A stretch of 64,000 nucleotides of DNA. Source: an uncultured Acidobacteriota bacterium (GTDB taxonomy: Bacteria > Acidobacteriota > UBA6911 > CAINFC01). Position 1 is the first letter of the stretch, and every line of letters starts with the position of its first letter. Location of the stretch: NCBI GenBank assembly GCA_903847975.1, contig CAINFC010000079.1, forward strand, positions 75,847 through 139,846. The letters are read 5' to 3'. Shown here in pieces: positions 21,001 through 27,000 of the stretch. A program made the position numbers.

Positions 21001-24000
21001 GCCCCGCTTCAGCTTCGCCTGGGACGTTTTCGGTACCGGCAAACTGGCGGTCCGTGCCGGAGTCGGCGTGTTCCACGGGGTGACCGGAATCGCCTACTCC
21101 GGATGGTACCTGGGGGCCCGCGCGCCGCTCATCCAGTCGACATCGATCTCCAACGGCTTTGCCGACAACCCGGCCAGCGGCGTTCCCAGCACCACGATCT
21201 ACCCGATCGACGCCGGCGCGCTGCCGTCCGAATACAAGATTCCCACCATGTACAACTACACTTTGGGCATTCAGACCATTCTCCCGTACGCCACCCAGCT
21301 GGACGTCAGCTATGTGGGCAATACCGGCCGGCACCTTTCTCTGAGCCGCAACCTGAACTACATCACTCCCGAGGTCCAGGCCGCCCACCAGGGAGTCGAC
21401 CTGCGCCCCTTTGCGCCCTATCCCGGACTGGGCGGGCTCAATATGGTGGAGCCCTCGGCTACCTCCAGCTACAACGCCATGCAGCTGGCGGCCCGGAGGC
21501 GCACCGGGCAGATCACCTACAGCGTTTCCTACACCCTGGGCAAGATTATGGGCTACGGAAATGAGGGTGTTGCCGGCGGGATGCAGAATCCCAACAACTG
21601 GCGGCTGGACCGATCGGAACTGGAAGAAAGCCGCCGGCACTATGCCATCATCATGCACACCTGGGAGTTGCCGTGGTTTAAAACCCAGCAGGGGCTGCTG
21701 GGCAGAATCCTGGGTGGCTGGTCGATCACCGGGGTTTGGACTCTCAACACCGGGCGGCTCTATTCGCCCGGGCTGACCGCTGTGGCCCGGGGGGTTGCCA
21801 GCCGTCCGGACGTGGTGGGAGACTGGGAGCTGCCCAAAAGCGAGCGCACCATTTTCCGATTCTTCAACACCGCGGCATTTGCCCGGCCGAAGGACTGGAC
21901 GTTCGGCAACGCGGGAAAGTGGATCGTTCGCGGACCGGGCACCATCGACCTGAGCGCGTTTGCCCTCAAGGACATCAAGGTGTGGGAAAGAATCAAGCTG
22001 CAGGCGCGGGTCGAGGCCTTCAATGCTCCGAACCACATGAACCTGCAGGACATCAACACCACCCTGGGGAATGCGTCCTTCGGCCAGGTAAGCGGCGTAG
22101 GTGCGCCGCGCTACATCCAGCTCGGCATGAAGATGCTCTGGTAAATCTTCCCGGCATCCTTTCGCAACTGTCAAGCCACAAGGCCGGCCCGGGCACGAAA
22201 ACCCGGGCCGGCCTTTTTCTTGATAACCCGGCAAAAAGTCGAAATTCATTTTATGTTCTGCGGTCCCTTACGGGACTGGCGTGTGTACTGCACGGGACGA
22301 AATAGCGGAGATCATACCGTTGTACTACGGCCTTGCCTTGTCAGGCCCTGCGTTTGCCGGCACACGGCTGTAATTCCGAGGCATAAGTCCCGTCAGGGAC
22401 GACAAGATTATGGCCCGGCAATTTATTGCCGGGTTGGCTCCAGCGCGGGGTAAGACCCATCGGGACGGTAGAACCGGACGAAAAAACGGGTTTTTTTCGA
22501 AGCCATCCTTCCTGACAAACCGGTAAAAAGTCCCATATCTGGAGATTTCCGTTGGGGAAAGCACCTGAAAGGGCTTGGCAACACAGCCCGGGGTTGGCGC
22601 GCTTCGCGCCTACCCCGGGTAGGGACACCCTCTGGCGACAACCCGGAAAGGGTTGCGCAAAATCCGTAATGACCGTTGTTTGCGCAGCCCTTTCCGGGCA
22701 GTATTTTAAACAAAACCGCCTACCCGGGGTAGCGCCTGTGCGGCGCAACCCCGGGCTGTGATCCGGAACCCCTTGCGGGGTTCCAGACCTTTTACCGCTT
22801 CCTCGTTTTTCACTCTTGTCCAAAATAATTAAATGCCAAACGCGCTTTCCAGCACCAGCAGATGTTTGTCCCAGACAATATTCCATGAGCCTGGTTGCAG
22901 GAAAAACAGGGTTGTTTTAAGCGGGGGGCGCCGGTAGAATATAGCCATGTCGGAAAAGCCGATAAAGCAATATTCTATAGAACCGTTCACCGGCCTGCCG
23001 CAGGAGGCGGCCGCCGCGCTCCTGCGTCGCGGAATGGAACTGGAGTTTCCCGAAGGAGAGTGGATTTACCGGCAGGGCGCAAATGACGAAGAAATCTACC
23101 TGCTGGTTTCCGGAAGCGTGGAAGGAATCCTGCTATCCGAATCGGGCGTTCCGACCACCGTTTTCAATTGGGAGTCAGGGGATCTCTTCGGGGAAGAATG
23201 CCTTTTCGTGGCCGGGGCAAGACGGGAATCGGCCCGGACGACGGCCCCTTCGAAGTTGTTTCGGATCGGCCGGCAGGACTTCGAGGAGGCCCAGACCGAA
23301 TTTCCGGCTCTGTCGGCTTTTCTCTCACGGGCGCTCTTCCAGCACATTTCCCGTATCCACGAGCATCTCCATCACTCTGCCGAAATGGAACAGGCTTACC
23401 TGAAGTTCCTTTCCGCGCACGGCGGGGGAAACCACTGGCGGCCCCTGGGGAGGAGCGAATCGCTGAGAAGGGTTCGGGAAGCGGCGGAAGCGGCCGGAGG
23501 GAACCGGAATCCCGTTCTCCTGGTGGGGCCCGCCGGAACCGAGAAGCAGGACGTGGCCCGAAGCATCCATGCCGGCGGGGCCCGTCCCAACGCCCCCTTT
23601 CTGGTCATGGACGCCAAGACGGTCGGTCTGGAGCTGATCCTTGGCACCTCCGGCGAGGATGTCGGGGAAATGGCCCGGGAACTGGCTCAGGACCTGGCAC
23701 TTTTCGGATGCCGGATCGGCATCCCCACGGCCGCGGATGTGGATCGCATGGGATACCTGCGGGTAGGGTCCGGGGGGACGGTGCTCATTGAAAATGTGGA
23801 GTGCTTATCCGTGGTGGTCCAGGAGCGGCTTTACAATTTTCTTCGGACCGGCAGCCTCCTGCCTATGGGGGCTGATTTTCCTATCCGTTCCAACGCCCGC
23901 ATCATGGTTTCTACCACCGTGGATCTGGCGGCCTGGGCCGAGGCCGGCAAGTTTCACCCGGGGCTGCTTTCCTGCTTTCAGAAGCCTTACCTTCAGTTGC

Positions 24001-27000
24001 CCGCCCTGATCAAGCGGAAAAAAGATATCCTTCCCATGGCGGAGGGATTGGCCCGGGAATTTGCGCGCCGCACCGGCAAAAAGATCGAGGGGATTCACCC
24101 CGCAGCGGTGGTGGAGCTGCTGGAATACAGCTGGCCGGGAAACACCGAGGAACTGGCTGCCACTATTCGCTGCGCTGTCGACCTGGCCCAGGGGCCGGAG
24201 CTGATGCCCGAGGATGTGTTTGTCAGCGGCAAACCGGCTTTTTCCGGGCCGACCTTGAACATTCTGCCATGGAAGAATGTAGGCGGTTTGATCCGGCACC
24301 GCTGGTTTCCTGCTGCCCTGCAGTGGCCCGCAGGGATTGCCATTGCCCTGATTATGGCCCTGGGCTTCTGGGGGAATCCGTCCCCGGAACATAACGTCGC
24401 CCTGATTTTGGCCTGGTCTCTCTGGGAGCCGGCCGTTTTCTGGGGCGCCCTTTTCTTCGGCCGGGTGTGGTGTGCGATCTGTCCCATCGGTGGACTGAAT
24501 TCTGCGATAAGCGAGCGGTTCAGCCTGCAGCGCCGCATCCCTCCCTGGCTTCGGAAATATGGCCTGCACCTGGGCGCTGCGGGCCTGGCGGTGATTCTCT
24601 GGCTGGAAGAGGCGTCCGCCATGCCTTCGAGCGCCTGGGCCACCGCCTGGCTGGTGCTTTCTATCCTGCTGGGGGGGATCCTTTTTGCAGTGGTTTATGC
24701 CCGCCGCGCCTGGTGCCGCTACGTTTGTCCCTTCGGCGGGATGGTGGGCCTGTTCTCGTCCTGCGCTGCCCTGGAAATCCGCTCGAACAAGGGGGTCTGC
24801 GACAACGAGTGCAAGACCCATGCCTGTTTCAAAGGCGGCAAGTCCGGCGGGGGATGTCCTCTGCTCGAAGGACCCTTCATGCTGCAGACCAACATTCATT
24901 GCGTGATGTGTGGGCAGTGCATAAAAAATTGCCCGCACGGGGCGCTAAGGCTGAATCTGCGCCTGCCGGCTGCGGAGCTCTGGACCTCGGCTCAGCCGGC
25001 CGCTGCCATCGCCATCTATCTTCCGGTGGTGATCGCCAGCCAGGTTTTCCGTCAGACCTGGGCGACCGGAGTCTTTCGACCGCTGGAGGAACCGGCCGTC
25101 CTTCGATGGTCCTTCCTGGCGTTCTTCTTTCTTCTTCTGATCGCTGCGGCCAGCTGGTGGATGCAATCCTGCGGCCGCTCGCTCTTTGGCGGGGAGGAGG
25201 AGACTTCGCCAAACGCCTGGGGTTTTTTTGCCCATGCCCTGTTGCCGCTATCCCTGGCTTTCGAGCTCGGCTTCCAGACCGAGCGCGCCCTGGAGCGCGC
25301 CGGGCTATTTCCCGATGTTCTGCTTCACCAGATGGGGATTGCCTCTTCCGCTTCGCTGGGAGCGCCGGCCATTCCCTGGGTGGTTCAATTGATCCAGGTC
25401 GGCCTCTGCTTTCTCGGCATTCTGGCTTCGAATTCCCTGCTGAAAAAGCTGCTGTCCGAAAAGCGGGATCCCTGCCGGCAGCAGAAATACCCTATGGCCG
25501 GCGTCTGGTCCCTCGGCCTGCTGTATGTTGTCCTGCTCATTTTCGGCTAAGAGGGAAGCCCGAACCGGGTTCGACCTGCCGCAGCATGACCAGGGCCCGG
25601 GCGGCAGGCTCCAGCCGCGAGAGGGGAACACCGTCGATCGGAATGTCGTGACAGGAATCACACGACTGGGAAACGGTTTTGCCGCTTTCGCCGACATGCT
25701 GATCGTCATGGCAGCGGAAGCAGCCCAGTTCATTCTGGTGTCCAAGCAGGTTGAGGTAGTTGTTCCAGCCGATATTCATTTCCATGGAGACATTGATCCG
25801 GTAGGCCAGGCTGGACAGGGTTTGTGCTTCCGCGGCGAGGGAAGGCCGGAGCCTGTCGAACAGGTCCGGGAGCCTGGATTTGTAGTACGACTCCAGCGAT
25901 TCCAGAATTCCTTTGCCCGCCTCGGATCCGGGGGGATACTTCCGACTCAGCGCTTCCAGCGCGGCTTTTTTCAGGTGGGGAAGAGAAGTGTTCAGCTTTC
26001 CCTGGAAGAGCAGGCGGTCCAGGGCCTCTTCCTGGGATTCGTAGCGGTGTGCCACGCGGTTATGACAGTCCGTACAGTCCATGGTTCGCCAGGGCGTATC
26101 CGGAGCCGGGTCAGGCCAATCGGCTCGCACGTAACGTCTGGTTTTTCCCTTTTCGCTGACCCGCAGTTCCTTGATCTTTAGCCGCTGCGGATCGTCTGTC
26201 CGGTATTCGACATGGGCGTCGTGTCCCGCATGCCAGTGGATGCCTACCGCTTTTCCGGTGTCGGGAAGAAAGCCTCCCACGTGAAGCCGGACCAGAGTGA
26301 CCTGCGGATCCAGCAAATCGCTTTCGGCGGGAAAGCGGAAATAAACTTTATCGCGGTTGCTGTAATAAACCCGGCCGGAGTGGCATTCCTCGCACGTTTC
26401 CATGGCAGGTCTTAGGTTGTGTATCGGGGTTTTGATGGGCCGGCTGTAGTTCCCGGTAGAAGTGGCGTAGACCTGTCGGAAGCCGGAAAGTTTGGCCTTG
26501 ATATACCAGGCAGCTCCGTGTCCGATATGACACTCCGCACAGGAAACCTGAGAATGAGCCGATCGCTGGTGAAGGGCGAGGTCGGGGCCCATGACCGAGT
26601 GGCAGAACTTGCCGCAGAATTCGGTCGACTCGGTATACAGGTAAATATGGTAGGAGCCGAATGCCGCCAGCGTGGTCAGGAAGAGGGCCACGGTTGCCAG
26701 GAGCCGGCGCCGCATCTTTTTCCGGGCCTGTTCCGCCTCCTTGCGGCGCGTCACATCGCGGACCACAAGGTGAGTCATGTGCTCACCCTGGTGAAGGAAT
26801 GGAGAAGCCAGTAACTCCGCGTAAAACCAGGTCTGGTCCATGCGCCGGAAGCGGATTTCCTCCAGAGGAGTATCTGCTCCGGCGGTTTTTATCCGTTCTA
26901 CGACTTCCCTGGTTTGAAGACTTGCTTTGTCCGCGAAAAAATCTTCCAGGGATCGGCCGTGAACCTCCCGCGGACGGGTAACGCGAAGAATATCCAGGGA

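Follow-up and report, generated by a model that had tools for sequence, protein, structure and literature searches.

What does the AAA+ module known from bacterial enhancer-binding proteins (bEBPs) do when it forms part of a membrane protein? The question is raised by a 64,000-nt stretch of contig CAINFC010000079.1 from an uncultured Acidobacteriota bacterium (assembly GCA_903847975.1, positions 75,847 to 139,846; hereafter the window), in which a single long open reading frame (ORF) of 867 codons at 22947–25550 on the plus strand joins such a module to a C-terminal membrane domain. The initial annotation of the gene described the AAA+ module as degenerate, predicted that σ54 contact is lost and ATP hydrolysis weak or absent, and proposed that the module may act only as a nucleotide- or oligomerization-dependent switch. 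We found that the catalytic motifs have been lost throughout a large family of such proteins while the fold is predicted to be intact, and we consider it probable that this bEBP-derived pseudo-ATPase links a sensor to a membrane redox module as a relay or scaffold, rather than activating transcription.

As judged from Pfam matches and a structural model, the fusion protein begins with a cyclic nucleotide monophosphate (cNMP)-binding domain of the CRP/PKA type (aa 32–114, 23040–23288; PF00027, E = 1e-13), followed by a long helical linker between sensor and AAA+ domain (aa 121–159, 23307–23423; DSSP on the model). Next come a degenerate bEBP-type AAA+ α/β core (aa 168–340, 23448–23966; PF00158, Sigma54_activat, E = 8.8e-20) and the AAA+ lid (aa 356–424, 24012–24218; PF25601, AAA_lid_14, E = 1.9e-12). 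In place of the bEBP DNA-binding domain, the C-terminal part is a NapH-like Fe-S membrane domain (24312–25547), recognized by Fer4_5 and Fer4 matches, hydropathy, and DSSP. All of these features are on the plus strand. The protein recurs identically on ~10 contigs from several metagenome samples; since these are independent assemblies, it is not an assembly artifact. An artifact or a pseudogene was ruled out by these identical copies together with conservation across records labeled as several phyla.

Loss of Catalytic and σ54-Contact Motifs

The Sigma54_activat profile scored 71.5 bits with the window protein against a Pfam cut-off of 20.2, far above chance, and the module including the lid spans 23448–24218. 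The assignment of the segment to the bEBP central domain, initially placed at 23400–24200, is thus upheld with slightly different limits. When aa 152–438 were compared with bEBPs in the PDB using phmmer, the best E-value was 2.5e-25 (ZraR, 1ojl; NtrC1, 1ny6/4ly6), and HMMER alignments to ZraR and NtrC1 were ungapped over the critical segments. Residue columns were numbered according to PspF, whose reference sequence was checked and found identical to residues 1–265 of PDB entry 2bjw. The roles of GAFTGA in contacting σ54 and DNA, of E108 and the switch Asn, and of the R168-type finger are reviewed in PMC7175178.

In alignments to ZraR, NtrC1, and PspF, Walker A reads GPAGTEKQ (aa 194–201, 23526–23549), as initially noted, versus GERGTGKE in PspF: G41 is replaced by E199 and E43 by Q201, while the P-loop lysine is kept as K200. 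The switch-Asn position, N64 in PspF, is occupied by D222 (23610–23612). The reading of Walker B as VLIENVE also proved correct. In the remnant GGTVLIENVE (23772–23801), TVLIEN stands opposite TLFLDE of PspF, with E282 and N283 replacing D107 and E108. The sensor I threonine (T148 of PspF) is retained as T323.

The state of the σ54-contact loop differs from the initial description, according to which GAFTGA is absent. The motif is indeed lost, but the loop is not: the L1 remnant ALFGCRIGIPTAA (23697–23735) aligns with ELFGHEAGAFTGA of PspF, and GIPTAA (23718–23735) fills the GAFTGA position. This hexapeptide retains the G, T, and A of GAFTGA, with F changed to P, and a clade-specific insertion of ~17 aa, seen as a gap opposite ZraR/NtrC1, precedes the L1 helix (aa 227–249, 23625–23693).

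The arginine-finger and sensor region, in contrast to the initial view, is not retained. PspF FRADLLDRL corresponds to FHPGLLSCF within the segment KFHPGLLSCF (23949–23978), R162 being replaced by H337 and R168 by C343; the ZraR counterpart, rfrqdlyyrl, aligns here without gaps. Sensor II reads WPGNTEEL (24132–24155) versus WPGNIREL in PspF, R227 being replaced by E401. WPGN itself (aa 396–399) is present, as had been noted, and so are two other structural motifs, LFG and the PLRxRxxDI-like ALIKRKKDI at the start of the lid, which it overlaps (24003–24029; PALIKRKKDI versus PPLRERESDI in PspF). Strings resembling GAFTGA, a P-loop, hhhhDE, FRxDLxxR, or GNxRE were found nowhere else in the protein or in the other reading frames, which disposes of the possibility, raised initially, that an intact motif lies shifted elsewhere.

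Pfam detected no helix-turn-helix (HTH) domain of the Fis type (HTH_8, PF02954) in the window protein, and NCBIfam bEBP equivalogs (PspF, RtcR, NorR, ZraR, NtrC, etc.) gave only 60–100 bits against cut-offs of ~440–1000. Judged by these alignments, the degeneracy of the domain exceeds that described initially, every catalytic and σ54-contact element being substituted. The predicted loss of σ54 contact and ATP hydrolysis is strongly supported, also by the changes in the arginine fingers, sensor II, and the switch Asn and by the missing HTH. The window protein is very probably neither an ATPase nor a σ54 activator.

Predicted Fold of the AAA+ Module

An AlphaFold2 model of the full-length protein was built on a 73-sequence family alignment (mean pLDDT 90.2, pTM 0.77), the AAA+ core and lid reaching pLDDT values of 92–98 for the most part. 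In a Foldseek search of the PDB, the top matches were bEBP central domains alone: FlrC, NtrC1, ZraR, LuxO, PspF, FleQ, and NifA, with target TM-scores of 0.86–0.94, a root-mean-square deviation of ~2 Å, and 24–27% identity. The predicted AAA+ fold is thus intact and of the bEBP type. The best match was the receiver-plus-central "inactive state" structure of NtrC1 (1ny5), with 297 aligned columns versus ~260 for chains containing only the AAA+ domain. We infer that the helix of aa 121–159 acts as a bEBP regulatory linker, with which the extended alignment to 1ny5 is consistent.

Family Distribution and Motif Census

When 1.84 billion cluster representatives were searched with a profile, at least 150 matches at E = 1e-113 or better were found. 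In nearly all of them, one match covered both the AAA+ and the membrane part; the exceptions were three giant proteins and some fragments. The giants (P0103, P0160, and P0163; 2651–3779 aa) matched the profile through 12–16 tandem cNMP-binding-like stretches and are unrelated to the AAA+ part. The AAA+/membrane core is common to at least 140 clusters (50% identity), which come from metagenome-assembled genomes (MAGs) as well as isolates. A genome scan with one genome per species yielded 80 loci (548 candidates), whose record titles name Desulfobacterales, Desulfobulbales, Nitrospirota/Thermodesulfovibrio, Ca. Scalindua/Brocadiaceae, and Armatimonadota. Cultured carriers include Desulfosediminicola flagellatus IMCC35005, which has two copies, and also Desulfobulbus sp. 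Tol-SR, Desulforhopalus sp. IMCC35007, and Desulfurivibrio sp. C05AmB. Where a genome has two copies, they may be adjacent or nearby (L018, L028, and L029) or, as in D. flagellatus, far apart on one chromosome (L037 and L042). A word-indexed search had suggested that the family is rare, returning six full-length relatives, to which a repeat by alignment added one fragment; the impression was false because ordinary bEBPs had swamped the candidates in that search, and it was refuted by the broader searches.

To set the substitutions in the window protein against the family, 140 family AAA+ domains were compared with 16 ordinary bEBPs recovered in the same searches and processed by the same pipeline. 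Exact GAFTGA occurred in none of the family domains, versus 15 of the 16 controls (the remaining one had GAFTDA), and the L1 region was variable or deleted in many family members. The Walker B D-E pair, kept in the controls, was likewise absent from all 140; position 108 was N in 78 members, with H in a further 30. Arginines that the 16 controls keep were found in few family members: R162 in 5, R168 in 8, and R227 in 18. Position 64 was D in 98 of the 140, versus N in 13 of the 16 controls. The structural positions behaved differently. G79 and N225, both kept in the controls, were present in 138 family domains each, E228 in 139 (13/16 controls), L229 in 137 (15/16), R182 in 129 (15/16), and D185 in 128 (13/16).

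Loss of catalytic residues combined with near-invariance of structural ones is what is classically seen, at the level of sequence, when a pseudoenzyme is under purifying selection. Identities over all pairs were 28% for the AAA+ core, 34% for the lid, 28% for the cNMP domain, and 37% for the Fe-S membrane core. The AAA+ core is conserved equally with the sensor domain, which argues that it is under selection and not decaying. The motif loss must be older than the family's radiation.

Two Clades and the Nucleotide Pocket

Position 41 of Walker A divides the family: it is G in 82 members, whereas 38 have E and one has D. In the G41 clade (n = 82), the P-loop lysine position is K in 70 and R in 11, Lys or Arg is often found at the position of the Walker B Asp, and the spacer ahead of L1 has the length seen in bEBPs. 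The complete GxxGxGK motif is present in 67 of the 140 family members. The E/D41 clade (n = 39), to which the window protein belongs, has GTE followed by K, L, V, or M, with Lys in 26 of the 39 (otherwise L, V, M, or H). Its Walker B reads E-N, sensor II is E or D in 34 of 39, and D64 is found in 31 of 39. The spacer between positions N64 and E76 is 22–30 aa long in this clade versus 11 aa in 16 of 16 bEBPs and most of the G41 clade. In the window protein, the former phosphate pocket is lined by four acidic residues, E199, D222, E282, and E401. Four acidic side chains argue against nucleotide binding in its clade, where the pocket is probably empty; residual nucleotide binding is more credible, and on present alignments plausible, in the G41 clade.

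These observations bear on the strongest alternative, an AAA+ domain that binds ATP without hydrolyzing it, binding controlling oligomerization much as ATP drives the hexamerization of TyrR. Such a switch would account for the retention of G194, G197, K200, and the sensor I residue T323, and for the complete GxxGxGK of the sister clade. The change of D-E to E-N also resembles Walker B trap mutants, and the structures of two of these, NtrC1 E239A and PspF E108Q, were among the Foldseek matches of our model; the classic trap mutants bind nucleotide without hydrolyzing it. Yet E199 directly precedes the lysine, which is itself kept in only part of the E/D41 clade; D222, E282, and E401 make the pocket electrostatically unfavorable for phosphates; and the residues that read the nucleotide, the trans arginine fingers and the sensor II Arg, are gone. 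We therefore regard an ATP-dependent switch as unlikely in the window protein, with a higher probability in the G41 clade. The nucleotide-dependent part of the switch proposed in the initial annotation is accordingly the less likely one for the window protein and would be plausible only in the sister clade that has GxxGxGK; an oligomerization or scaffold switch would be a plausible role for the domain.

Membrane Fe-S Domain

Hydropathy and the model place approximately eight transmembrane (TM) helices from aa 456 onward, and the Fer4_5 and Fer4 matches fall within aa 567–668 of the 867-aa protein. Two membrane-proximal motifs, WCAICP (WCxxCP, aa 508–513, 24468–24491) and WCRYVCP (WCxxxCP, aa 589–595, 24711–24737), are followed by a cytoplasmic segment of the 2x[4Fe-4S] type (24798–24935) with the pattern C618-x3-C622-x4-C627...C637-P and C652-x2-C655-x2-C658-x3-C662-P. 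These motifs, two of the CxxCP/CxxxCP kind close to the membrane and two 4Fe-4S Cys motifs, make up the NapH-type pattern. Twelve cysteines (C509/C512, C590/C594, C618/C622/C627/C637, and C652/C655/C658/C662) were invariant in 73–76 sequences.

Hidden Markov models (HMMs) of NapH/MauN matched with E-values of 8e-12 and 6e-10, at scores far under the curated cut-offs (TIGR02163, 45.2 versus 213 bits; NF007013, 38.6 versus 234), which indicates only distant kinship; the NosR HMM matched at E = 0.009. A separate model of aa 440–867 (24264–25547) was obtained with high scores (pLDDT 94.3, pTM 0.92), and Foldseek found no structural relative of it in the PDB (best E = 0.05, TM-score ≤0.2). The fold of this NapH-like membrane polyferredoxin, as modeled, seems to be structurally uncharted.

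N-Terminal Sensors

The cNMP-binding domain of the window protein scored 51.5 bits with PF00027, against a cut-off of 27.5. Its phosphate-binding cassette (aa 81–96, 23187–23234), FGEECLFVAGARRESA, is atypical in that R93-E94 replace S-A, although G82, E83, and R92 have been preserved; the family consensus, FGE..LLTGEPRSA, is canonical. Longer members carry different sensors ahead of the AAA+/membrane core, namely cNMP plus one or two GAF domains, FHA plus GAF, GAF alone, or HisKA plus receiver (P0060, P0067, P0071, P0082, P0091, P0122, P0125, P0137, and P0143); P0006 has AIM24 plus cNMP. Scalindua members lack a sensor and begin at the AAA+ domain, their matches starting at residue 167. On the contig of the closest homologue (L009), the cNMP domain is called as a separate 97-aa gene (55–348) just upstream of one for a 752-aa AAA+/membrane protein (396–2654); the gene is either truly split there or frameshifted. 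The interchange of sensors in front of the AAA+ domain, which follows the bEBP plan, is the main argument that the domain relays a signal and is not a passive spacer.

Genomic Context

When 79 loci were analyzed by ORF calling and all-versus-all clustering, no operon partner proved to be conserved, and the gene usually stood alone. Recurrent neighbors reflected housekeeping synteny within Desulfobulbales, the largest clusters being hisD-, rsmG-, prs-, and leuB-like by eye. No napG/napAB or mau genes were present among the window neighbors scanned or the recurring clusters of the 79 loci, and no true bEBP or rpoN among the recurring clusters, of which only the largest were inspected.

In the window, a gene for a PAS-containing NapC/NirT-type multihaem cytochrome (25537–27234, minus strand; Pfam PAS and Cytochrom_NNT) is convergent with the fusion gene and overlaps its 3' end by 14 nt. 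In L009 (2686–4260, plus strand) and L011 (2752–4041), its orthologue (48–49% identity) comes next downstream of the closest homologue, there on the same strand, so that adjacency is conserved between the window and these loci and orientation is not. Greedy ORF calling is unreliable at high-GC loci, and the cytochrome neighbor was therefore re-tested by tblastn. Other family members are flanked by ApbE, small cytochrome c, or electron-transfer flavoprotein (ETF) genes. The redox neighbors hint at a redox role, although they are not general across the family, and the PAS-NapC/NirT cytochrome is a possible redox partner.

Upstream of the fusion gene lies an unusually long intergenic region of ~800 bp (22145–22946), with a strong terminator hairpin at 22180–22215, after the preceding outer-membrane-protein gene. 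With this terminator and no recurrent operon partner, the fusion gene looks like a transcription unit of its own, which fits a self-contained protein combining sensor and output. No site matching the σ54 promoter consensus was found upstream of the gene, such sites being below chance expectation in the window as a whole, and no σ70 consensus promoter was found in the 22145–22946 region. A 181-aa ORF in this region (22341–22886, minus strand) is a called gene in ENA records and has no Pfam match. An Rfam scan of the whole window gave no matches.

The preceding gene (18848–22144, plus strand) encodes a 1098-aa outer-membrane protein that has a CarboxypepD_reg domain, matches Plug weakly, and contains OMP_b-brl_4 (E = 1.6e-174), a TonB-dependent-receptor-like architecture typical of Acidobacteriota. 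Elsewhere in the window are a gene whose 865-aa product joins a Ser/Thr protein kinase to a long tetratricopeptide repeat array (29182–31779, minus strand) and three genes of the PIG-L (GlcNAc-PI de-N-acetylase) family (11231–13750, 16383–17120, and 33164–35098), two of them within much larger proteins.

Discussion

The reading that we favor is that of a pseudo-ATPase relaying signals, or providing a scaffold, between the sensor and the membrane redox module. In the mechanism that we envisage, the N-terminal sensor (cNMP here; GAF, FHA, or receiver in relatives) would signal to the AAA+ body by way of the linker helix. This body, a rigid relay or oligomerization platform, would position or gate the Fe-S face that the membrane domain presents to the cytoplasm. 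Electrons would in turn be exchanged between the membrane domain and the quinone pool or a partner, for example the adjacent PAS-NapC/NirT cytochrome. The direction of the signal, the oligomeric state, the lack of bound nucleotide, and electron transfer as the output are what we infer from this arrangement. A broader version, in which the bEBP central domain was exapted, probably in a nucleotide-free form, as the transducer of widespread, hitherto unrecognized one-component membrane proteins that couple cytoplasmic signals (cNMP, GAF ligands, phosphorylation, or FHA targets) directly to Fe-S/quinone electron transfer, is put forward more tentatively and is somewhat short of an even chance.

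Several points weigh against the relay. Ring formation by bEBPs normally requires nucleotide and arginine fingers, and the fingers are missing from the window protein. Conversely, the surviving K200, G194, G197, and T323 may allow some residual nucleotide binding. The atypical phosphate-binding cassette makes the input ligand of the cNMP domain uncertain. A redox role for the membrane domain would be assigned by analogy, the domain being distantly NapH-like and having no solved homologue. Finally, the cytochrome neighbor occurs in two lineages only, tblastn having shown it to be absent from the other ~80 family loci retrieved.

Apart from the ATP-dependent switch considered above, a dead AAA+ domain tethered to the membrane might be a decoy or anti-activator that co-assembles with, or sequesters, genuine bEBP subunits or σ54 and, depending on cNMP or the redox state, poisons their rings. 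Mixed rings with ATPase-dead subunits do inhibit bEBPs, and a membrane-anchored, sensor-bearing protein with a bEBP-like AAA+ fold and many bEBP-like surface-forming structural motifs would suit such a function. However, the elements making inter-subunit and σ54 contacts, the arginine fingers and the L1 loop, are lost, no true bEBP or rpoN was identified in the largest recurring neighbor clusters of the 79 loci, and the 12 invariant cysteines argue for a working redox module beyond a mere anchor. We consider this function quite improbable.

It is also very improbable that the AAA+ domain is a functionless relic, a decaying spacer left by the fusion event that merely links two domains. The loss of all catalytic residues and the variable or deleted L1 would be expected of such a remnant. 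But the conservation on a par with the sensor domain, the structural motifs that are near-invariant across records labeled as several phyla, and the high pLDDT over most of the domain would not, and no family member has discarded the AAA+ domain, even where the sensor has been swapped or lost. A genuine σ54-dependent activator with unconventional motifs, as implied by Pfam and NCBIfam matches within the bEBP superfamily and by the NCBI name of homologues, "sigma 54-interacting transcriptional regulator", can practically be dismissed, given equivalog scores far below cut-off, the lost GAFTGA, Walker B, arginine fingers, and sensor II, the missing DNA-binding domain, and a C-terminus that is an integral membrane domain.

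How does the relay protein compare with known systems? By descent, its closest known counterparts are canonical bEBPs (NtrC1, ZraR, FlrC, and PspF), with which it shares the AAA+ clade and fold (E ~1e-25, target TM-score ~0.9), the order of sensor, linker helix, and central domain, and the LFG, PLRxRxxDI, and WPGNxxEL motifs. It differs from them in its substituted Walker A Gly, D-E pair, switch Asn, GAFTGA, arginine fingers, and sensor II Arg, and in having a membrane Fe-S domain where they have a C-terminal HTH. A second group, the closest in terms of lost σ54 function, are the atypical enhancer-binding proteins (EBPs) TyrR, PhhR, HupR, HsfA, NtrX, VpsR, and DhaR, which have lost GAFTGA, keep the HTH, and are σ70-dependent transcription factors; some have a non-consensus Walker B, such as N-D in VpsR (PMC6158489, PMC3162934). 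The window protein likewise has a bEBP-derived AAA+ domain without GAFTGA, the criterion for this group (PMC6158489), and the structures of VpsR and NtrX are among its structural matches. Unlike it, the atypical EBPs keep the HTH, none is an integral membrane protein or has Fe-S motifs, and their degeneracy is less complete with respect to the arginine fingers, sensor II, and the P-loop.

Membrane polyferredoxins of the NapH/MauN, NosR/NirI, and CcoG types resemble the membrane domain in having WCxxCP and WCxxxCP after TM helices and cytoplasmic cysteines of the 2x[4Fe-4S] type. In contrast to them, the window protein has ~4 extra C-terminal TM helices and an N-terminal sensor-AAA+ arm, scores far under their cut-offs, and has no NapG/NapAB or nos/nir context. 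By the tests that define these groups, it is therefore neither a canonical bEBP, nor an atypical EBP, nor NapH proper. It may also be compared with AAA+ pseudo-ATPases in general, which are a concept and not a family; as in these, the fold is kept and the catalytic residues are lost family-wide under selection. In the searchable literature, we found no description of a protein joining Sigma54_activat to a membrane domain of the NapH-like kind, or of a bEBP-clade pseudo-ATPase coupled to a non-transcriptional (membrane redox) output.

Databases enter some homologues as "sigma 54-interacting transcriptional regulator" and others as "cyclic nucleotide-binding domain-containing protein". The former name is probably misleading for the family; if so, counts of "sigma-54 activators" would be inflated in genomes that carry the family. 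In the broader version of our reading, hundreds of genes would be mis-annotated. The family is large and is found mostly in MAGs labeled as sulfate-reducing, Nitrospirota, or anammox bacteria, with a few cultured Desulfobulbales. It offers a natural experiment on a nucleotide-free AAA+ fold, in which the sister clade that keeps the P-loop permits direct comparison, and, since the membrane Fe-S domain has no solved relative, it is a structural target as well. To our knowledge, the atypical EBPs characterized so far all remain DNA-binding transcription factors. If our reading is correct, the AAA+ domain of a σ54 activator would have survived complete loss of its ATPase and σ54 functions and gained a non-transcriptional role at the membrane; in the broader version, these bacteria would have a post-translational control of respiration built on the chassis of a σ54 activator.

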